Positions 4,063 to 56,301 of a DNA stretch of 64,000 nt are shown here, in pieces. This stretch comes from Oscillospiraceae bacterium (GTDB lineage Bacteria > Bacillota > Clostridia > Oscillospirales > SIG627). The notes beneath the pieces were generated by a model. The model did not search any database. It was not told the origin of the DNA and saw only the letters and a list, made by a program, of their open reading frames with translations. Positions within the stretch are counted from its first letter, which is position 1. Each line of letters begins with the position of its first letter. Both the position numbers and the translations under genes were made by a program. The stretch is taken from positions 8,324 through 72,323 of the forward strand of contig SVTC01000008.1 in NCBI GenBank assembly GCA_015063985.1, written 5' to 3'.

Positions 4063-5829
4063 TTATTTTCCTTCTGCCTTAAGAGCAGCCTCGTTGGAGG
4101 AAGCTATAACGCTTTCAAGCACGGAGTAGTAGACCTCGTTGCTCTCCTTGTAGTTCTCAAGGTTAGCCTCGTCAAATATTCTGTATCCGAACTGAGCGGA
4201 CTTGACGTTGCTGAGCTTGGAGGAGGTCATATAGTAATCGTTGTAGAAGCAAAGTGCGGTTGCGGGGCAGATCTCTGCAAACTTCTTTTCAAGATCAATA
4301 AGGATCTTAGCTCTGTCGCCTCTGTTAAGCTTTTCAAGAACGGAATCAACAAGTGCATCGTAGTCTGCGTTCTCGATATTGGTAACGTGGGGAGTGTAGC
4401 CGACAGAATCATCTGCAACTGATACGACGTTGCCGCTGTATCTGGTTGCGAAGGGTGCAAGGTAGGAATATGCGCTGGTGGTAAGACCCTGATAGTCAAG
4501 ACCGATAACGTCGAAATCACCGGTGTAAAGAGCGGTAACGTACTCGTCTCTTGCAAGACCCTTAAGAGTTACCTTGAAGCCGAGGGACTCCCAAATGCCC
4601 TTTGCATACTCTGCAACAGCCTTATCGTAATCTCTGTCGCTGCGATAGGTAAGGGTGAAGCTTCCGCCCTTAACGCCTGCGGAGGAAAGAAGGCTCTTAG
4701 CGCCGCTCGCATCTGCTGTGGTGCTGTAAATATCGCCTGCCTCGTCACGGAAGGACTTACCCATAGAGCTTCCGTATACACCGTGGGTAACAAAGCCCGT
4801 AGCAGCCTCTGCGCCTCTGCCGATGATCTTTGCGATCTCGTTACGGTCAAGAGCAAGGCTCAGTGCCTGTCTGACCTTTGCATCGTCGAGGACCTCGTTT
4901 GCGCAATCAAAGAAATATGTGTAAGAGGACAAAAGCTCCTGAGTGGTGAGCTTATCCTTATAGGATTCGTAATTCTCCTTGGAGAGCTCTGCGATATAAT
5001 GGAGCTCGCCGTTGTTGAAGAGCTCAAGCTGCTCTGCAAGATCGTAGCTGTAATCGGTAAGCAGACGGAAGGGCTTGATGTGCTTCATATAGCCTTCCTC
5101 GAAGGTGTTCTGTCCGAGGTAGTAGCTGTTCATCTCAAGTCTGTAAAGACCGCCGTTTACTCTGCCCTTAAGAGCGAAGGGGCCGTTTGTCAGCATATCG
5201 TCCGCACCCTTGGATGCCCAGGTATCAACCTTATCCGCAACACCTGCAACGTCATCTCTGACGGCAACGAGAGAGGGACTTGCGATAGCCTCGAGGAAAA
5301 GCTCGGAATCGATGGGCTTCTCAAACTCGATCTCAAGAAGAGTCTGGCTTACTGCGGCAATACCAACGTTGTCGATAGTAACGTCGCCGGCCTTTGCTGC
5401 CTTAGCATTCTTAACGTCGAAAAGAAGTGCTGCGGCGGGTGAATTGGTCTCGGGAGAAAGGATCCTCTTCCATGCCCAAGCATAGTGGTCTGCGGAAAGA
5501 GCACGACCGTCGTTCCACTTTGAGGTGTCAAGTCTTATAAAGAGCTTATACTCCTGTCTGTCTTCATCGTAATCGGTCCACCACTCGGATGCCATAGCCT
5601 TATCAATGCTTCCGCTTGTGGATATCTCGGTAAGACCCTCAAACATAACTCCTGCATACTTTATGTAATCCTTGTCATAGATCATGGGAGCGGGATCAAG
5701 ATTTGCGGGCTCGCTTGCAAGATACATTTTGATAACGGCGCCCTTGTCCTCAAGGTCGACCGCACAGCCGAAAAGGGTGCAGCACATTGTCGCCATCACC
5801 AAAAACAATGCAATAATTTTCTTCTTCAT
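4063..5829 (-). CDS. ABC transporter substrate-binding lipoprotein, family 5 (peptide/nickel/oligosaccharide type)
   Basis: MKKKIIALFLVMATMCCTLFGCAV is a lipobox signal peptide. About 590 aa with the general family-5 SBP look. Start taken at the MKKK Met (5829) rather than the track start. Confidence 0.8.
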   Translation of the reverse strand: MKKKIIALFLVMATMCCTLFGCAVDLEDKGAVIKMYLASEPANLDPAPMIYDKDYIKYAGVMFEGLTEISTSGSIDKAMASEWWTDYDEDRQEYKLFIRLDTSKWNDGRALSADHYAWAWKRILSPETNSPAAALLFDVKNAKAAKAGDVTIDNVGIAAVSQTLLEIEFEKPIDSELFLEAIASPSLVAVRDDVAGVADKVDTWASKGADDMLTNGPFALKGRVNGGLYRLEMNSYYLGQNTFEEGYMKHIKPFRLLTDYSYDLAEQLELFNNGELHYIAELSKENYESYKDKLTTQELLSSYTYFFDCANEVLDDAKVRQALSLALDRNEIAKIIGRGAEAATGFVTHGVYGSSMGKSFRDEAGDIYSTTADASGAKSLLSSAGVKGGSFTLTYRSDRDYDKAVAEYAKGIWESLGFKVTLKGLARDEYVTALYTGDFDVIGLDYQGLTTSAYSYLAPFATRYSGNVVSVADDSVGYTPHVTNIENADYDALVDSVLEKLNRGDRAKILIDLEKKFAEICPATALCFYNDYYMTSSKLSNVKSAQFGYRIFDEANLENYKESNEVYYSVLESVIASSNEAALKAEGK

Positions 5830-5981
5830 GAAAAACTTCCTCCTATGTAAATGCCGCGTACGTCGCCCTAAGGCGACCCATAACATCATTATTATACCAC
5901 CAAATCAAGTATTTTACAATTAAAAAAATTAACAACTCGAAAATTCTTCCAATTGCACAACAAACGCAGTCATTTATTGTG

Positions 5982-6773
5982 CTAAATGCCCAAAATTTCA
6001 GGAAAAACCACTTCTCCGCAAGCTCCAAAAGAGCTTTTTATCACAGTAATATCACTATCTGCGGCATTTATAGCCTCACAAAACATATCAAGACAAAGTA
6101 TTTCGCTTGAATAATGGGAGACCTCTATCACGTTCAGACCGCTCTGAGTGCAGTCAAGCACCAGGTTGTAGGAAAGATCGCCGGATAAAAACGTATCGCA
6201 GCCCTCCTTTTGCGCCAGTGGCAAAAACTCCTTGCCGCCGCCGCAAACGCACATAAGCCTTTTGGCTGTGTCACTGCCCTTGAAAAGCTTAACGGGCTGT
6301 CCCAGGGCGGAAGCTGCGATCAAAGCCGCCTCCTCGGCACTGCAATCCTCCAGCGTGCCTATCCTTCCCAGAGGAAGACCCTCCTCGGGGTCAAGCACGT
6401 CCGTGACGTTTTCAAGACCTATAGCGGCGGCAAATCTATCGTTAAGACCGCCTCTTGCACAATCCGCACGGGTGTGAAAGCTGAAGACGGCAATATTATT
6501 TTCGCAAAGTGCCTTCACTCTTCTGCCGAAAAGACCGTCGCCGTCAATGCTTTTTACACCCCTGAAAATAAAGGGGTGATGACTGACGATAAGATCACAA
6601 CCCTCATCGCAGGCAGCTCGAACAGCCTCGTCGGTAACGTCAAGACACACAAGAGCCTTTTTTACCTCTTTATCCCAATCAAGGCAAAGCATCGCACCGT
6701 CGTTGTCCCAGGAGCAGGAAAGCTCCTTGGGATAGCTTTGACACAGTGCCTCATATAATTTCCTTCGGTTCAT
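5982..6773 (-). CDS. Nif3-like dinuclear metal centre protein (YqfO family)
   Basis: LIVSHHPFIF, FSFHTRAD and the C-terminal H..SE motif. Overlaps and follows trmK, as in the conserved yqfN-yqfO pair. Confidence 0.85.
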   Translation of the reverse strand: MNRRKLYEALCQSYPKELSCSWDNDGAMLCLDWDKEVKKALVCLDVTDEAVRAACDEGCDLIVSHHPFIFRGVKSIDGDGLFGRRVKALCENNIAVFSFHTRADCARGGLNDRFAAAIGLENVTDVLDPEEGLPLGRIGTLEDCSAEEAALIAASALGQPVKLFKGSDTAKRLMCVCGGGKEFLPLAQKEGCDTFLSGDLSYNLVLDCTQSGLNVIEVSHYSSEILCLDMFCEAINAADSDITVIKSSFGACGEVVFPEILGI

Positions 6774-7458
6774 AATCCTTACCCTCCAGGATATCTTTTA
6801 TTTCCCCGTAAAGGGCACGTTTTTTTGATGCAACGCCACCCGAGATCTCCATCCCCCTTATCTCCTTTTCGAGTCGGGAGGATAAAAAAACAAGACACTC
6901 CCTCCAAAGAGGCTCTCTTCGCGAAAGCACCTCTCTGCCGGCAAAGTATTCAAGCTCGGGAAGAGTCCTTTTCACACCGGAGTAAGCAGCCTTCATCACA
7001 ACAAACAGCCTTTTATGCTCCCACACCAAAATATCGCGGGTGATCTCAAAGCCGTTCTCCCACAAAAATTTTCTCAGGTGAGGCGCCTTTGTCATAGGCT
7101 GGAAAACAAAGCTTTTCCCCAAAAGGCTGCCGTCGGGCTCGCAAAGCATACCCGAAACGGTCTCTCCGCCCATTCCCGCAACCACAAAGCAATCGGGAGA
7201 ATATTTTAAAAGCGGTCTTATACCGTCCGCCAACACAAAATCCGCACGGTGGCAAAGTCCGCTATCCTTAAAAGTCTCTTTTCCTCTTTGCAGAGGAAGA
7301 GGATTGATATCGCTCACAACGACCCTTGGCGCAATTCCCTTTTGCAAAAGATAAAGAGAAAGAGCGGCGTGATCGGCACCAACGTCAGCGGTAACAGCCC
7401 CCTTCGGTACCAATTCCGCCGCCGCCAAAAGTCTTTTGGACAAAACTTCCTCTTTCAT
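6751..7458 (-). CDS. trmK: tRNA (adenine22-N1)-methyltransferase
   Basis: SKRLLAAAELVPKG..ADVGADHA.L..YL, SDINP.PL and VVAGMGGE motifs typical of TrmK. Paired with Nif3. Confidence 0.85.
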   Translation of the reverse strand: MKEEVLSKRLLAAAELVPKGAVTADVGADHAALSLYLLQKGIAPRVVVSDINPLPLQRGKETFKDSGLCHRADFVLADGIRPLLKYSPDCFVVAGMGGETVSGMLCEPDGSLLGKSFVFQPMTKAPHLRKFLWENGFEITRDILVWEHKRLFVVMKAAYSGVKRTLPELEYFAGREVLSRREPLWRECLVFLSSRLEKEIRGMEISGGVASKKRALYGEIKDILEGKDYEPKEII

Positions 7459-50768: not shown

Positions 50769-51302
50769 TCAGGCCTCAAGCTGCTTTGCCAAAAATGCCG
50801 CCGCGGTCTGGACAAGCTTTATTTCCAGGTCGGTGGGCTCGCCTTCCCCATCCGTCACACTCAGTACGGCGCCTATTATATCTCCGTCAAGGAGTATGGG
50901 CATAAGGACGCTTACGTAGCTTCCCGCCTTACCCAGATCTATAAGCGCCTGACCGCTTCTGTGGCAAAAGAGCTGTCTTCGTTCTATAAGCCGCTCCAGC
51001 TCCTGAGGCAGCTTCTGATCCACAAACTCCTTTTTCGATATTCCCGCGCAGGCGATTATGCTGTCTCTGTCGCATACCGCCACGTTCAGACCGCAGCTTT
51101 TGTTCAAGGTGTCGCAGTATCCCGATGCAAAGTTAAAAAGCTCCCCTATGGGCGAATACTTTTTAAATATCACTTCCCCATCGTGATCGGTAAATATTTC
51201 CAGCGGGTCGCCCTCTCTTATCCTCATCGTGCGACGAATTTCTTTGGGGATAACGACTCTGCCGAGGTCGTCTATACGTCTTACTATTCCAGTTGCTTTC
51301 AT
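50769..51302 (-). CDS. spoVT: stage V sporulation protein T (AbrB-type N-domain + GAF-like C-domain)
   Basis: MKATGIVRRIDDLGRVVIPKEIRRTMRIREGDPLEIF is the canonical SpoVT/AbrB swapped-hairpin N-terminus. At 177 aa the length matches SpoVT. Confidence 0.9.
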   Translation of the reverse strand: MKATGIVRRIDDLGRVVIPKEIRRTMRIREGDPLEIFTDHDGEVIFKKYSPIGELFNFASGYCDTLNKSCGLNVAVCDRDSIIACAGISKKEFVDQKLPQELERLIERRQLFCHRSGQALIDLGKAGSYVSVLMPILLDGDIIGAVLSVTDGEGEPTDLEIKLVQTAAAFLAKQLEA

Positions 51303-51367
51303 ATATACATTTCTCCTTAAATTACAAATTGTGTTGTTATTATCTGTAATTTGAGGGGATTTATACT
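51292..51367. repeat. left direct repeat: first 11 nt of spoVT plus its upstream region
   Basis: GTTGCTTTCAT-ATATACATTTCTCCTT-aaatta-CAAATTGTGTTGTTATTATCTGTAATTTGAGGGGATTTATACT recurs at 54029-54164. The 43-nt 3' part differs at one base. Confidence 0.85.
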
Positions 51368-51391
51368 TTTAAAACAACTAATAAACTGGGA

Positions 51392-52825
51392 TTATTTCAA
51401 TTTTTGATTGAAAGTTCTTTCAGTTACAGGTTCGTCATAATTCCAGTAAATAATATGAACGCCATTCTTTTTGCACAAGTTAGATTTTTTCAAATCTCTT
51501 TTTTGTAATTCTTTGAATTTTTGTTCGCCGCCAAAATAATCTACTGGACTAAAATGTTGAATTCCTTGATACTCAAAAGCGATTTTTAAAGAAGGAATAT
51601 AAACGTCCAAAGATTGCTGACCAAGCCACTGTGCACGATATTGATAGATGGCTTCGGGATAATGCTTGTGTATCAATTCAAACATTGCAGCTTCGTTTAC
51701 CCACTTGCTAATTTTAATTCCTGCTGCTTTCATTTCCAATAAAAGTGAAGATTCATATTCTTGGAATATTTCTTTTTCTTTTTTGCATTTTTCTTGCAGG
51801 AACCACAAATCTATATCGCCCGAAAAACTACATTTCGATGAACCGTATTCGCCATAAGTGCCTTTAAAATATGCTGTAGAGAATATTTTGTCAAAAATGT
51901 TATTGAATATTTCTTTATCTGTTTTTATTCCTGTCAACATTTTCATTGTATCCAAAAGGCACTGACACATTCTTTCTTGTGAATCGGTCAACGATGGTAA
52001 TGCAGAAAAATATCCGTGTTTTTCTGTTAATGTTATATCCATTATGGAAATAAACATATCCATGGGCACGCCATAAATAGAATATGAACCGCGAAGCCTT
52101 GAAAAAAGATAGCGAACCTCTTTTAATTCTAAATTTTTCTCGTCGAGTTTAATTCGGATGTTTTGTGTTTCATCATTTTCAAATATATTGGGTACAATTT
52201 CAAAAGGCAAACTATGCCTCATTAACCAAGATACTATTTCGCCTGTTTTATTGTTGCCACAAGTGTAATAAAGATATCTATAATCATCATTCCTTTTAAA
52301 AAACTTTTTGCGAAAAAACTCTATAAACTCTTTGTTAATAGAAATTGAAGCGTCAGGCGATGTTTCCTTATGATATCGAGAAATTTCCGCTTGTGTCATA
52401 GCAGAAAGTTCCCAAAGAGTAATATCTCTATCGGCTATTTTGTAACAACCAGTCATTTTATTAAGCGTAAAGCCGTATTGACATGGCCCTAAAAACAAAG
52501 CAGATTCTTTATGTGGCAATTGATACAATTCACCACGAGTATCAATTAAATAATTTTCTTTTGATTTTTCATCGAACACTATTATAGAAGTATATTCTTG
52601 ATTTGATGCAGATACGAAAGCTTTATTAAAAATAATTTGTTCCTGGTCTTTTGTAACATGAACAATACAATGATTTCCACGATATTTCTTTTGATAAAAT
52701 ATGCCCTTTTCCGTATTAACACAAAAAGCGCCTATTTCATATTTTTTTGCCTTGTCTATAGGAAACATAGGAGTTTTATTTGTGATAACTATATCTTTTT
52801 TATTATCCCATTTTTTAACGAGCAT
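51392..52825 (-). CDS. 477-aa protein with C-terminal Vsr/DUF559-like PD-(D/E)XK nuclease domain; N-terminal ~370 aa unassigned
   Basis: AT-rich ORF with AAGAGGTG RBS. C-terminus ...SLDVYIPSLKIAFEYQGIQHF...KRD..K...C...G...I carries the D...(A/V)(F/I)E(Y)xGxQH pattern of restriction-endonuclease-fold proteins. No motif recognised in the N-terminal part. Confidence 0.6.
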   Translation of the reverse strand: MLVKKWDNKKDIVITNKTPMFPIDKAKKYEIGAFCVNTEKGIFYQKKYRGNHCIVHVTKDQEQIIFNKAFVSASNQEYTSIIVFDEKSKENYLIDTRGELYQLPHKESALFLGPCQYGFTLNKMTGCYKIADRDITLWELSAMTQAEISRYHKETSPDASISINKEFIEFFRKKFFKRNDDYRYLYYTCGNNKTGEIVSWLMRHSLPFEIVPNIFENDETQNIRIKLDEKNLELKEVRYLFSRLRGSYSIYGVPMDMFISIMDITLTEKHGYFSALPSLTDSQERMCQCLLDTMKMLTGIKTDKEIFNNIFDKIFSTAYFKGTYGEYGSSKCSFSGDIDLWFLQEKCKKEKEIFQEYESSLLLEMKAAGIKISKWVNEAAMFELIHKHYPEAIYQYRAQWLGQQSLDVYIPSLKIAFEYQGIQHFSPVDYFGGEQKFKELQKRDLKKSNLCKKNGVHIIYWNYDEPVTERTFNQKLK

Positions 52826-52848
52826 ATTTTCACCTCTTTATTATTGTA

Positions 52849-53604
52849 TTATTGATGACTTTCAAGTTCTTTTGTTTTCGCTTCTAACTTTTTAATCTCT
52901 TGGCTTAAGATTTCACTATATTCTGCAGAATAAAAATCAATTTTTGAACTTAAATATGTATTATGCCATAATACTTTTTGTTTTGATTTTATATCTGTTG
53001 CTTCTTCCAGCAGTTTTTCACATTCATTGATTCTATAAAGAAGCAATTCAATATAATTATCCTTAAAAGCCGTTTTTTGCATATAGTCTACAAAAAACAA
53101 ACCATCGCTATCTTGCATTATCCATTTTTGTCGACTTTCATTAGTAGCCAAGTTTAACTTGCCAACGGTTTCTGGGTGTATAACTATTCTGGGGTAAATA
53201 GAAACATTGCTTTCTATATAATAGGCATCTAAAAGAGCGTTTCCCCACAACATAGTTTCATCGGCGAAAAAGTCACCCATTGAAATTCCACCACGAACAA
53301 GATATTTGTGATGAAGAAACTCGTGTTGAATTAAACCACTCAAAATAGCGATAGAAACAAAAGCAGAAAAGTCACCGTTTTGTTTTGTTGGAACTGCAAT
53401 AACAATATTGTCTGAAAAAATTCTAATAATTGGCTTTAGTTTGCTTATTCTTCCGTCATCATATAATTTTTCACATGAAGCTAAAGCATTTTCATACACG
53501 GCATGTACGATATTCAAAGATTTTTCAACGTCTTCCCTGATTTTTTTAGACGAACCTAAAATATCTATAAAAGCAACAACATATTCTTCCAACTTGTGTT
53601 CCAT
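52849..53604 (-). CDS. 251-aa protein with class III nucleotidyl-cyclase-like (palm/CHD) motif pattern and C-terminal coiled coil
   Basis: VAFIDILGSS (D14) parallels F.DI.GFT. IRIFSDNIVIAV (D65) parallels K.IGDA.M. VRGGISMGDFF parallels R.GIH.G. LWGNALLDAYYIES parallels .WGD.VN.A.R.ES. The Asn/Arg of the last motif are not conserved. RBS AAGGGGGA. Sits 23 nt upstream of the nuclease-domain gene. Confidence 0.5.
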   Translation of the reverse strand: MEHKLEEYVVAFIDILGSSKKIREDVEKSLNIVHAVYENALASCEKLYDDGRISKLKPIIRIFSDNIVIAVPTKQNGDFSAFVSIAILSGLIQHEFLHHKYLVRGGISMGDFFADETMLWGNALLDAYYIESNVSIYPRIVIHPETVGKLNLATNESRQKWIMQDSDGLFFVDYMQKTAFKDNYIELLLYRINECEKLLEEATDIKSKQKVLWHNTYLSSKIDFYSAEYSEILSQEIKKLEAKTKELESHQ

Positions 53605-53667
53605 CTGAATCTATCCCCCTTTGTTTATAATATTATATCATATTCTAACACATAAAACAAGCGAGGC

Positions 53668-53853
53668 TCAACACCTCGCTTGTTCTTTATATCGTTTCAA
53701 AATACTATGTACTGCAATCGCAAACTTTTCTTCCAGTGTCAATGTTGTATGAGAGGGGGCTCCTTCTCTTATCCGCATCGTGCGGCGAATTTCTTTGGGG
53801 ATAACAACACGACCAAGGTCGTCTATTCTACGAACAATTCCAGTTGCTTTCAT
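53668..53853 (-). pseudogene. 5' fragment of a second, diverged spoVT/abrB-type gene fused to unrelated sequence
   Basis: The first 30 codons (MKATGIVRRIDDLGRVVIPKEIRRTMRIREG) match SpoVT exactly at protein level. At DNA level 53762-53853 vs 51211-51302 shows 14 mismatches in 92 nt by hand count. In-frame homology then ends, leaving a 61-aa ORF too short for a complete AbrB fold. Confidence 0.6.
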
Positions 53854-53919
53854 AAATATATTGACTCCTCTTTCTTTAATTTAATGAATAATGAAAAATG
53901 AATGATGAATATTGGAATA

Positions 53920-54026
53920 ATTAATGTGTCGGCACAGCCGACAATATTTATATCGTGCCGAAGGCACACCGAAATTATTCACTATTCACTATTCATTATT
54001 CACTCGCAAGGCTCCGCCTTGCGCCC
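53920..54026. repeat. string of small GC hairpins in AT-rich context plus a TTCACTA-type tandem repeat
   Basis: GTCGGCACAGCCGAC, GTGCCGAAGGCAC and GCAAGGCTCCGCCTTGC separated by AATATTTATATC and ATTATTCACTATTCACTATTCATTATTCACT. Confidence 0.7.
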
Positions 54027-54028
54027 CT

Positions 54029-54164
54029 GTTGCTTTCATATATAAATTCTCCTTTGTTGATTTTGTAGGGGCGGCAATCTGCCGCACGCGGGAGGCTGAT
54101 AGCCTCCCCTACGAAAAATTTCAAATTGTGTTGTTATTATCTGTAATTTGAGGAGATTTATACT
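54029..54164. repeat. right direct repeat (spoVT 5' stub + upstream region), interrupted by a 66-bp palindromic insertion
   Basis: GTTGCTTTCAT-ATATAAATTCTCCTT, then the insertion at 54055-54120, then CAAATTGTGTTGTTATTATCTGTAATTTGAGGAGATTTATACT. The insertion holds nested hairpins GTAGGGG[CGGCAatcTGCCG]cacgc[GGGAGGCTgatAGCCTCCC]CTAC. Confidence 0.85.
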
Positions 54165-54171
54165 GCGTGAA

Positions 54172-54200
54172 TTTACTTTTTGAATTGGTTGTGATATAAT
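54172..54200 (+). promoter_or_regulatory. putative sigma-A-type promoter for the 117-aa gene
   Basis: TTTACT, 17 nt spacer, then TGaTATAAT (extended -10) about 30 nt upstream of ATG 54230. The same elements occur at the same spacing at 60388-60416. Confidence 0.45.
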
Positions 54201-54229
54201 AAATAAAAATAATCGATAGGAGGTATTTT

Positions 54230-54583
54230 ATGGCAGATCCGATTATAGAAGAATTAGAAAGTTTCAATGCATTTAGAGTTGATGCTTATTGCGAAGGTTA
54301 TCCGGATGTGATTTTTGAAATCATTTTGGATGTCCAACCGACACAAGAACAAATCACAACTGCCGTTAGTGCTTTGGAACAGTTTGTAAGCCAATATAAC
54401 AAACGCCATTTTTTGAAACCTATTCATTATGTTTCTGATGTTGATAGCTTACCCGACGGCGATCACCCAAGAGGGATATACATACATGTTGATTTTGGTA
54501 ACAGCTCTCCCACTGCTCTAATTGCTGCAGTTGAAGCTTTAGAAAAAACGAAACTGCCTATTTTTAGAGTTGCCTTACAATAA
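54230..54583 (+). CDS. 117-aa acidic cytoplasmic protein, hypothetical
   Basis: AGGAGG RBS 7 nt upstream. AT-rich. No recognisable family. Confidence 0.6.
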   Translation: MADPIIEELESFNAFRVDAYCEGYPDVIFEIILDVQPTQEQITTAVSALEQFVSQYNKRHFLKPIHYVSDVDSLPDGDHPRGIYIHVDFGNSSPTALIAAVEALEKTKLPIFRVALQ

Positions 54584-54607
54584 ATTCATCTGTAAATACA
54601 TAACAAC

Positions 54608-54653
54608 GAGGCTGAGTCAAAAGCAAAATTTTCGCTTTTGACTCAGCCTCTTT
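54608..54653 (+). terminator. strong rho-independent terminator; copy 1 of an identical 46-bp repeat
   Basis: GAGGCTGAGTCAAAAGC-aaaattttc-GCTTTTGACTCAGCCTC-TTT. The 17-bp stem is perfect and a T-run follows. Identical to 61223-61268. Confidence 0.8.
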
Positions 54654-54684
54654 TTTGAGACTTATTGACTCAGCGCCTATGAAT

Positions 54685-55494
54685 TTATTTGACGTTATAG
54701 CGCTCAACTATTTTTTTGACATAGTCACGTGGGGATGTTCCCATACGGCGTTTGAATGCGTAGCTGAAATAGGATTGCGATGAAAATCCGCACTCATAGG
54801 CTATCTGTGTAAGTGTCATATCGGTAGAGATCAGTAGATTGACAGATTTTTTGATTCGTTGATCTTCCACATATTCGTGCAGCGTTTTTCCCGTGGAGGC
54901 TTTGAAAAGCTTGTGAAAATATATCGTGTTGAAATTCGCCGCACTTGCCAGCTTTTCAAGTGTAAGCTCTGCAGACAGATTATTGTTGATATATTCAAGT
55001 GCGCGCTCTATTGTTTTGCGATTGTTGCTTTTCGGAGTGAATTTTACGACAGAGGCAGAGTTTTCACTTAATATATATATGAGTTTAAGTATTAAGCTTT
55101 GAAGAAAGATATCATCGTTTGAAATTCCCGTATTATAGTGTTCACATAGCGATATAAATATCTCTTTTATCTGATCTGTATCTAAAAAATCAATATAGTT
55201 CGGGAGATTAGTAAGAACGTCTCCAAGATACCCATCGTTTACGATCATATGAATATAATAACACTTAAACGGCAAACGGGTATGTCGGATCTGTCCGGGC
55301 TTTGCGCAGATGACCATATTCTCAGTTATCGGATGAGATTCATCATTGATATATGACATTCCTCCGCTTCCAATGGGAAGCTCGAGCTCAAACATTGAAG
55401 TTTTTCGGTTTTTTGATATCGTTCGATTTTTGATTGCAATTTGGGCGTTGTATATTCCGATTGCAACGATCTGCGGTAAAATAGTTTCTTTCAT
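54685..55494 (-). CDS. AraC family transcriptional regulator
   Basis: C-terminal double HTH (LTLEKLA...NFN..YF.KLFK..TG.T...Y....R..K...LL..T....T.IA...GF.S.SYF...FKR..G.SP..Y). N-terminal cupin-like sensor. Confidence 0.9.
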   Translation of the reverse strand: MKETILPQIVAIGIYNAQIAIKNRTISKNRKTSMFELELPIGSGGMSYINDESHPITENMVICAKPGQIRHTRLPFKCYYIHMIVNDGYLGDVLTNLPNYIDFLDTDQIKEIFISLCEHYNTGISNDDIFLQSLILKLIYILSENSASVVKFTPKSNNRKTIERALEYINNNLSAELTLEKLASAANFNTIYFHKLFKASTGKTLHEYVEDQRIKKSVNLLISTDMTLTQIAYECGFSSQSYFSYAFKRRMGTSPRDYVKKIVERYNVK

Positions 55495-55617
55495 AGCACT
55501 CCAATAATAGCAAGATATCTAATAAATGCGGAAATAAATATATATTTTTCTGACAAGATCTATTATATAATAAAATAAAAAAGATATCAATAGAAACGGT
55601 AATAAAAAGAGGTTTAT

Positions 55618-56301
55618 ATGAAAATAACATGGCTTGGTCAGGCCGGATTGCTTTTTTACAACGGAAAAGTAAAAATAATGGTGGATCCATATTTATCAAA
55701 CAGTGTGGAAAAAGCAGAGCCTAAAATTTTTCGTCGCGTTCCCGTAAAGGAGGAGCTCTTTAATATCGAGCCTGATTTTATGGTGTTTACACACGATCAT
55801 CTTGATCATTACGATCCCGAAACAGCTCCAAGATTCCTTTGCGAAGGAAGAAATCCCATGACTGTATTGAGCCCTACCTCGGTATGGAAAAAGGCGAGAG
55901 TTTGCGGTGGCGGTCACAATTACGTACTTTTTGACAGAGGCAGTGAGTGGACGGATAAGGGGATTCATTTCACTGCGGTAAGGGCGGTACATAGCGATGC
56001 CTACGCTATTGGAGTTATAATTGAGGATCTTACTGAAAATAAGGTATATTACGTAACGGGTGATACTCTCTATAACCGAGAGATTTTTTCGGATCTTCCC
56101 GAAAGCATAGACGTTATATTTCTTCCTATAAACGGAGTGGGTAATAATATGAACGCAACCGACGCGGTGAGATTTTTCAAGGACAGCGGCGCAAAACGGG
56201 CGGTTCCTTATCACGTAGGTATGTTTGACAGCAAAACCGCTGATATTTTTGATGATGAGAATAAAATAATTTTGGAAGTATATAAAGAAAGTGAGCTGTG
56301 A
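55618..56301 (+). CDS. MBL-fold metallo-hydrolase (possible lactonase, UlaG-like small form)
   Basis: MKITWLGQAGLL......I.VDPYLS and THDHLDHYD zinc motif. 227 aa. Confidence 0.75.
   Translation: MKITWLGQAGLLFYNGKVKIMVDPYLSNSVEKAEPKIFRRVPVKEELFNIEPDFMVFTHDHLDHYDPETAPRFLCEGRNPMTVLSPTSVWKKARVCGGGHNYVLFDRGSEWTDKGIHFTAVRAVHSDAYAIGVIIEDLTENKVYYVTGDTLYNREIFSDLPESIDVIFLPINGVGNNMNATDAVRFFKDSGAKRAVPYHVGMFDSKTADIFDDENKIILEVYKESEL

Follow-up and report, generated by a model that had tools for sequence, protein, structure and literature searches.

Among the described systems closest to the locus reported here, Panoptes is a guard system built on mCpol, a minimal Cas10-palm cyclase, with a separate effector and constitutive decoy signalling (PMC12657218, PMC12657230). 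On the nuclease side, the EDxHD enzymes are Vsr-like homing endonucleases that carry a composite EDxHD motif, such as I-Bth0305I (PMC3239194). We analysed a 64-kb stretch of DNA from an Oscillospiraceae bacterium (assembly GCA_015063985.1, contig SVTC01000008.1, positions 8,324 to 72,323 of the forward strand), the whole of which is referred to as the window. A two-gene module in this window encodes a 251-amino-acid (aa) cyclase-like protein and a 477-aa protein with a predicted Vsr-like nuclease domain. Its immediate downstream neighbour is an intact copy of the sporulation regulator gene spoVT, and it sits inside a 2.7-kb islet (51368-54115) that is horizontally acquired and mobile. Literature searches returned no described cyclase-plus-nuclease defence system and no mCpol relation matching this pair, and we regard the module as a candidate nucleotide-enzyme-based defence in a genuinely unusual, uncharacterised mobile setting. 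The reading that we tentatively prefer, at somewhat under an even chance, is a mobile cassette of two defence-type genes that are co-transcribed here yet separable, one for a dimeric two-metal nucleoside triphosphate (NTP)-processing enzyme and the other for a Vsr/EDxHD DNA endonuclease.

Both open reading frames (ORFs) of the module are on the minus strand, at 52849-53604 for the 251-aa protein and at 51392-52825 for the 477-aa protein, with a spacing of 23 nt. Each has a purine-rich ribosome-binding site (RBS) on its 5' side, GGGGGA and GAGGTG, as described in the original prediction, which had been made from the letters of this DNA alone. Same-length homologues of both ORFs occur in other assemblies at 75-98% identity, which indicates that they are genes and not chance ORFs. 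The G+C content over 51250-53750 was 0.26-0.33 (about 31% for the islet), versus 0.42-0.54 with a mean of about 0.46 in the rest of the window. The contrast in composition that had been proposed thus held, but the background of 50-58% G+C given with it was too high.

The AlphaFold model of the 251-aa protein (pLDDT 92, pTM 0.85) showed the secondary-structure order of a cyclase homology domain (CHD), with D14 at the end of beta1 and S64-D65-N66 in the beta2-beta3 hairpin. When the model was searched against the PDB with Foldseek, the best 50 of 99 significant matches (E <= 0.001) were all class III adenylyl or guanylyl cyclase domains, at E values of 1e-6 to 5e-5 and a probability of 1.0, and the top matches in a viral structure library were guanylate-cyclase-domain proteins. 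The class III fold expected from the four cyclase motif blocks, which are indeed present, was thereby recovered. Across 55 homologues, D14, S64, D65, R104, G105, E131, P138, R139, K210 and W213 were invariant. An hhalign comparison of the family profile with 25 cyclases of PF00211 gave a match that was weak (E 0.0047, probability 7.5%) yet exactly in register. D14 aligned with the first metal Asp and D65 with the second, both of which are invariant in the 25 PF00211 proteins; R61 aligned with the Lys of KTIGD at the base-specifying position, R104 with the Arg of RIGIH, W120-G121 with WG, and E131 with the Glu of RxES in helix alpha4. The canonical transition-state Asn and Arg (GDxVNxAxR, helix alpha4) were absent, as the original prediction had noticed: L125 stands at the Asn position and Y129 at the Arg position, and neither is conserved among the 55 homologues. 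According to the model and this alignment, the fold of the 251-aa protein is that of a class III cyclase, with the metal site kept and the canonical transition-state pair missing, and because of that missing pair its product may not be an ordinary 3',5'-cyclic nucleoside monophosphate (cNMP).

Compared with the class III cyclases (CHD, PF00211, including PycC of Pycsar), the 251-aa protein has the same predicted fold, beta-alpha-alpha-beta-beta-alpha-beta topology and metal Asp positions. R61 provides a basic residue where the cyclases have their base-specifying Lys, and there are counterparts of the RxGxH Arg, the WG pair and the helix-alpha4 Glu. It differs in matching no PF00211 or PycC model and in the replacement of Asn and Arg by L125 and Y129, and it adds the invariant YPR139, K210 and W213 together with a C-terminal three-helix extension. 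Neither the 251-aa protein (Pfam at E <= 1) nor the 55 family members matched any Pfam, NCBIfam or PADLOC model, and its PHROG matches were limited to two families, both of unknown function. A profile search of the protein against PDB sequences returned no cyclase, and the PDB sequence searches returned nothing relevant. The locus also departs from Pycsar, as PADLOC found no PycC and no cNMP-binding effector fused to a transmembrane (TM) or TIR module adjoins the gene. The likeness to Panoptes is one of size and setting, mCpol and the 251-aa protein both being minimal palm-type proteins of about 250 aa, the latter a predicted nucleotide synthase, beside a separate effector gene in defence loci, and constitutive decoy signalling is a possible logic for the window pair. 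However, no Cas10, GGDEF or mCpol structure was among the best 50 of the 99 significant PDB matches, the motif is SDN and not GGDD, and the neighbour in the window is a predicted soluble nuclease, unlike the 2TM-beta or CARF-TM effectors of Panoptes.

Tandem-duplicated members of the family bear on how the enzyme might work. In these proteins of 470-540 aa, D14 and D65 are missing from one half, usually the first, where E/Q/H and N/S stand in their place, and the other half retains both; P0182, P0183, P0185, P0214, P0216 and P0251 were inspected, and P0254 was too divergent for judgement by eye. This pattern, which is that of pseudo-heterodimeric class III cyclases, argues indirectly, from sequence, that the family may act as a catalytic dimer, and the fused sequences likewise suggest an asymmetry of the dimer like that of class III cyclases. 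The 251-aa protein would accordingly be a dimeric two-metal NTP-processing enzyme of class III cyclase fold, in which D14 and D65 would bind the metals, R104 would bind phosphates and R61 would fill the place of the base-specifying Lys.

The 477-aa protein was modelled with a pLDDT of 83 and consists of a beta-rich N-terminal domain (residues about 35-141), an alpha/beta domain (184-260), a helical region (281-367) and the nuclease domain (376-477). The LDVYIP...FEYQGIQH motif was found, and the C-terminal domain of the model matched the Vsr structures 1cw0_A (probability 0.98) and 1vsr (0.95), with target-normalised TM-scores of 0.54 and 0.52. Within the last 100 residues, E378, D407, E418, Q420, H424, D444 and K447 were invariant in 27 homologues; E378, D407, H424 and D444 correspond to the composite EDxHD motif as defined in PMC3239194. 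The model and these residues agree with the earlier assignment of a Vsr-like nuclease, and the 477-aa protein can be taken to carry a Vsr/EDxHD-type nuclease domain. No Pfam (including Vsr and DUF559), NCBIfam or PADLOC model matched the protein; PADLOC thus found neither product of the module, as had been expected. Its N-terminal 370 residues had no sequence match in Pfam or in PDB sequence and profile searches, and by fold they gave only weak beta-propeller-like fragment matches, so that the earlier description of this region as unmatched stands. No cNMP_binding, CARF, SAVED, STING, TIR or TM domain was matched in the 477-aa protein. In the proposed mechanism it would act as a Mg-dependent Vsr/EDxHD-type DNA endonuclease, and its novel N-terminal domains would determine what it targets or what triggers it.

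The relatives of the nuclease domain lie partly among mobile elements. The domain shares 54-58% identity with the C-terminal parts of NUMOD-carrying proteins (PF07453, PF22083) of about 720 aa, residues 345-470 hit PHROG families with homing or HNH endonuclease annotations, and the domain occurs in 255 phage records, with one matching record annotated as a homing endonuclease. Among the nuclease homologues, that of L017 (57% identical) has no cyclase-like gene upstream, that of L103 lies inside a mobile-element-like region, and that of L106 lies between a prophage holin and serine recombinases. The 477-aa C-terminus therefore shares with the EDxHD/Vsr-like homing endonucleases (I-Bth0305I) and with Vsr/DUF559 proteins the Vsr fold and the conserved E, D, H and D, and its close relatives are NUMOD-fused and abundant in phages. 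It differs in having no NUMOD region and about 370 aa of novel N-terminal domains, and instead of lying in an intron or intein, its gene stands free in a chromosomal cassette, next to a spoVT gene that is retained intact.

The site of the islet is defined by spoVT. The intact gene (50769-51302, minus strand, 177 aa; Pfam SpoVT_C at 2.4e-34 plus a MazE/AbrB N-terminal domain) is the anchor of the insertion, and its resident promoter copy (51319-51367, minus strand, repeat D2) forms the right edge, where the cargo of every islet stops exactly at AAAGTATAAATC. An upstream copy of this promoter (54116-54164, minus strand), of forespore type with GTATA-17 nt-GATAATA and 96% identical to 51319-51367, forms the left boundary of the bracketing duplication. 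Between this copy and the two genes lies spoVT', a 61-aa pseudo-ORF (53668-53853, minus strand) in which spoVT codons 1 to about 32 are fused to a tail of about 28 aa, and which matches the Pfam MazE/AbrB domain across residues 7-31 only. A function of this 61-aa ORF as an antitoxin or regulator was considered and downgraded; it is a duplicated spoVT 5' fragment and represents no independent gene family. Its tail shows about 9 non-synonymous versus 3 synonymous differences between islets by hand count, and is therefore probably not under purifying selection. At the nucleotide level, spoVT' is 83-86% identical to the 5' end of the resident spoVT and 90% identical to the fragment in L013. Being closer to the fragment of another host than to its own spoVT, it suggests that flanking sequence moved with the cargo.

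A terminator scan found a terminator-like hairpin with a T-run 3' of spoVT' (53656-53684, minus strand), which is a conserved landmark of the left cassette end. This hairpin, GCGAGGTG-loop-CACCTCGC and of GCGAGG type, also marked the left end of the cassettes in L014, L018, L101, L108 and L109, which hold other cargo, and no copy was found in viral contigs. The order of spoVT', hairpin, cargo, and promoter plus intact spoVT was shared by six hosts (the window, L013, L014, L018, L098 and L101), whose outer flanks were unrelated. Their SpoVT proteins were 46-62% identical versus 77-98% for the cyclase-like proteins, and the islets had a G+C content of 31-35% versus 42-54% in the hosts. Related metagenome contigs showed the same spoVT promoter beside the same upstream flank as in the window, with other cargo at the site: a 102-aa gene in L110, and in L108 a 365-aa gene between two promoter-plus-stub copies, neither with any cyclase-like gene. 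The left-end hairpin comes after the stub in L108 and L109. A cassette-free spoVT site in a close relative was not found, and all four promoter-carrying metagenome contigs held other cargo or stubs. No recombinase was present within 51368-54115, where the two genes, spoVT' and small repeats are all that was found, or in or adjoining the islets of L013, L014, L018, L098 and L101; in this the islet differs from integrase- or transposase-borne islands.

These results show that the spoVT promoter and 5' end are a recombinase-less cassette hotspot with variable cargo, and the mobile, compositionally foreign and defence-like context that had been proposed was supported by the six low-G+C islets and by the presence of the cyclase-like family in defence islands. 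The stretch 51368-54115 would then be one AT-rich cargo cassette of this hotspot, and its most economical route of entry would be homology-driven insertion or loop-out via the duplicated promoter and 5' segment. Another route would be a selfish homing cassette, in which the 477-aa protein is a free-standing EDxHD homing endonuclease that cuts cassette-free spoVT alleles and the cyclase-like gene is a passenger. The phage-borne and NUMOD-fused relatives of the nuclease domain, its place among the Vsr-like homing endonucleases (PMC3239194), the same spoVT position in divergent hosts and the apparent co-transfer of flanking spoVT sequence are all in keeping with such a cassette, but we consider it improbable. 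The islets of L101, L108 and L110 at the same site are free of any nuclease, and because nuclease-free cassettes occupy this site, nuclease-driven homing is unlikely as a general mechanism. Moreover, the intact spoVT beside the islet keeps an uninterrupted junction and would therefore stay a target, the insertion duplicates promoter and 5' end, unlike classical homing, and a Pfam scan of the 477-aa protein found no NUMOD or other known DNA-binding domain.

We then compared the second gene of the module across islets and related loci. The pair recurs in L013 (98% aa identity for the cyclase-like protein and 92% for the nuclease) and in L014-L016 (80% and 86%). Where another second gene is present, the cyclase-like genes are still 77-96% identical, and the cyclase-like proteins of L014 and L018 are 96% identical to each other beside different second genes. 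In L018 and L098 the second gene encodes a protein of 582-584 aa that has DUF4116 and a Vsr-like domain of another kind, and whose C-terminal segment looks SAP-like by eye (no model match); in L101 it is a 417-aa trypsin-like protease with helix-turn-helix (HTH) and TM segments, with its own promoter and a palindromic operator-like element; in L006 it is a 227-aa unannotated protein, and in L001 there is none. No domain was common to the alternative second genes save the Vsr-like domain in both nuclease types, and no candidate sensor domain recurred among them. Pairing with a Vsr-like nuclease thus recurs in one subfamily and does not define the family.

Two of these loci are described further here. 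In L101, the product of the gene at 5754-7127 combines an XRE-type HTH with a transmembrane segment and a trypsin-like protease domain, and this protease domain resembles the retron type XI and LmuA proteases; the gene has a TTGACA/TATAAT promoter of its own and the palindrome TTGCAAGCAACATTGTATTGTTTGCAA in front of it. At L006 (1412-4206), which is not a spoVT site, the gene of the 227-aa protein comes after a cyclase-like gene of 72% identity, and the gene of a 593-aa DUF4365 protein is next; the 227-aa protein has a possible D...D-x-K motif (by eye only).

A scan of 1.84 billion representative proteins (clusters at 50% identity) found 14,191 clusters of the cyclase-like family at E <= 1e-3 and 2,048 at E <= 1e-30. 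Typical members are 230-270 aa long, and some have an N-terminal XRE-type HTH domain. The neighbours of more distant cyclase-like genes were surveyed in 80 species-representative genomes. Directly downstream, a type I S subunit was found in 7/34 loci; directly upstream, a type I methyltransferase was found in 4/40 and AbiQ/ToxN in 6/40. Many members lie between hsdM and hsdS of type I restriction-modification (R-M) operons with no effector nearby. HsdR, a KAP NTPase, AbiEii, a TIR protein (TIR_2), a CAP12/Pycsar-type TIR protein, YhcG, DUF3800 and a McrBC-like protein were single-case neighbours, and SIR2 genes were also present. At least 12 copies had no co-directional neighbour inside 150 nt; most family members had no nuclease partner, and many were monocistronic. 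The co-occurrence of the two genes as neighbours, which had been put forward as a check, was therefore borne out in part: the pair is adjacent in L013 and L014-L016 and the family sits in defence islands, but most members lack the nuclease. The family resides in defence islands with no constant partner, and it appears to behave like a stand-alone abortive-infection or R-M-guard type gene.

PrrC sits at a comparable position inside the prr type I R-M locus. Many members of the 251-aa family are likewise found inside type I R-M operons (hsdM-hsdS), although they have no sequence or fold relation to PrrC/RloC-type accessory genes, and the copy in the window lies outside R-M operons. In L007-L010 (3988-6822), three genes are inserted between hsdM and hsdS of a type I R-M operon; their products are a SIR2_2 protein, a 251-aa protein that matches the PADLOC candidate PDC-S32 at its C-terminus, and a 273-aa cyclase-like member. 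The same protein was recorded on at least 24 contigs. In a recurrent arrangement of two genes, an AbiQ/ToxN toxin gene (about 178-194 aa) lies 7-69 nt upstream of the cyclase-like gene in L034, L036, L040, L043, L051 and L093, all six loci being from Lachnospiraceae, Eubacterium or Clostridia.

A toxin-antitoxin or addiction pair, with a nuclease toxin restrained by the upstream cyclase-like protein and the pair stabilising the islet, seems to us highly improbable. It would account for the short upstream gene followed at a tight gap by a nuclease, and members of the family do adjoin AbiQ/ToxN and AbiEii toxins. However, the upstream gene is found with downstream partners that are unrelated, its conserved two-metal site is what would be expected of an enzyme and not of a binding antitoxin, and both genes also occur alone.

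The original prediction had joined the two proteins as a signal generator and a nuclease effector. As an obligate system this was not supported, as the second gene is replaced in L018, L098 and L101 and the two families also occur alone. The model can still be envisaged with effectors that are swapped as in CBASS, Pycsar and Thoeris. A nucleotide messenger produced by the cyclase-like protein, on infection or, as Panoptes does, constitutively, would then control the adjacent effector through the non-catalytic domains of that effector. The tight operon, the invariant catalytic Asp pair and the recurrence of Vsr-like nucleases in the subfamily speak for such a signal, as do second genes that are effector-like and exchangeable, with two Vsr-like nuclease architectures and a trypsin-like protease in the islets, and the TIR_2, CAP12/Pycsar-type TIR, SIR2, YhcG and DUF3800 proteins that adjoin distant members. 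We nevertheless consider it doubtful, though possible, because the alternative partners have no common sensor domain, the 477-aa protein matched no cNMP-binding, CARF, SAVED or STING domain, both families occur apart, many members stand between hsdM and hsdS with no effector near them, and the partner in L101 has a promoter of its own.

On the reading of two separable defence-type genes, each gene would probably be able to work without the other. This independence is suggested because the second gene swaps among islets whose cyclase-like proteins are 77-98% identical, because the second gene of L101 has its own promoter and nuclease homologues occur alone, and because L108 and L110 hold unrelated cargo with no cyclase-like gene. 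Several observations weigh against it. A Vsr-like nuclease is the next gene in 5/8 host contexts seen for the subfamily (the window, L013, L014, L018 and L098), and the gap in those contexts is 23-33 nt with no terminator between the genes, which fits functional coupling. In addition, all partners seen look effector-like (nuclease, protease, TIR, SIR2, PD-(D/E)XK), the 250-aa cyclase-like protein is without an obvious effector function of its own, and the gene calls of the neighbour survey were crude (longest-ORF calling).

Further features were found inside the islet. A candidate sigma-A promoter of the two-gene unit (53632-53671, minus strand) has TTGAGC-18 nt-TAGAAT with an upstream TG and overlaps TGATATAAT; it is a consensus match from a promoter scan. 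A third, very short spoVT stub (54026-54056, minus strand), recognised from repeat family D3 and by reading the sequence, consists of an RBS and ATGAAAGCAACAGG. Between this stub and spoVT' lies an AT-rich inverted-repeat element (53885-54002, no strand assigned; inverted repeats I2 and I4) with 27-nt arms that are 85% complementary. The third stub and this element suggest successive insertions at the same site. A GC-rich palindromic element, GTAGGG...CCCTAC (54065-54112, no strand assigned), is located between the upstream promoter copy and an RBS, has a single copy in the 64-kb window and forms a stable hairpin (z = -4.0). A genome-wide repetitive extragenic palindromic (REP) element was rejected for the window, since there is one copy only; the palindrome could be a site-specific miniature element or a leader structure. 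Palindromes bounded by GTAGGG...CCCTAC were also seen in L018 (7645-7721) and L098 (7594-7661), at the promoter-to-RBS position of spoVT and with one copy per source. The fold z values of the palindromes in the three genomes range from -4 to -8, and the L098 element stands in front of an intact spoVT. A search of 51200-54400 against Rfam gave sub-threshold noise only. The DNA 5' of the islet (53750-56000) has a G+C content of merely 0.35-0.39 and may likewise be of foreign origin; it contains a 117-aa ORF (54230-54583), an AraC-type regulator (54685-55494) and the start of a metallo-beta-lactamase-like ORF.

Taken further, the unnamed minimal class-III-cyclase-fold family might constitute a new anti-phage class with non-canonical nucleotide chemistry, acting alone or via exchangeable effectors (Vsr-like nucleases, proteases), and carried in Clostridia by recombinase-less cassettes that are anchored by homology to the spoVT promoter and 5' end and marked by the left-end hairpin; as a whole we would rate this proposal as rather unlikely. 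If the family does serve in defence, it would be a third palm/cyclase lineage in bacterial nucleotide-based immunity, beside Pycsar and Cas10/mCpol, and one of more than 14,000 sequence clusters that carry no annotation at present. From the changes in its active site, a new product or a new reaction would be predicted. The frequent position in type I R-M operons and the adjacency to AbiQ suggest a back-up or guard role. The spoVT-anchored site points to integrase-free movement of cargo between distantly related spore-formers, which bears on how small defence islets spread.

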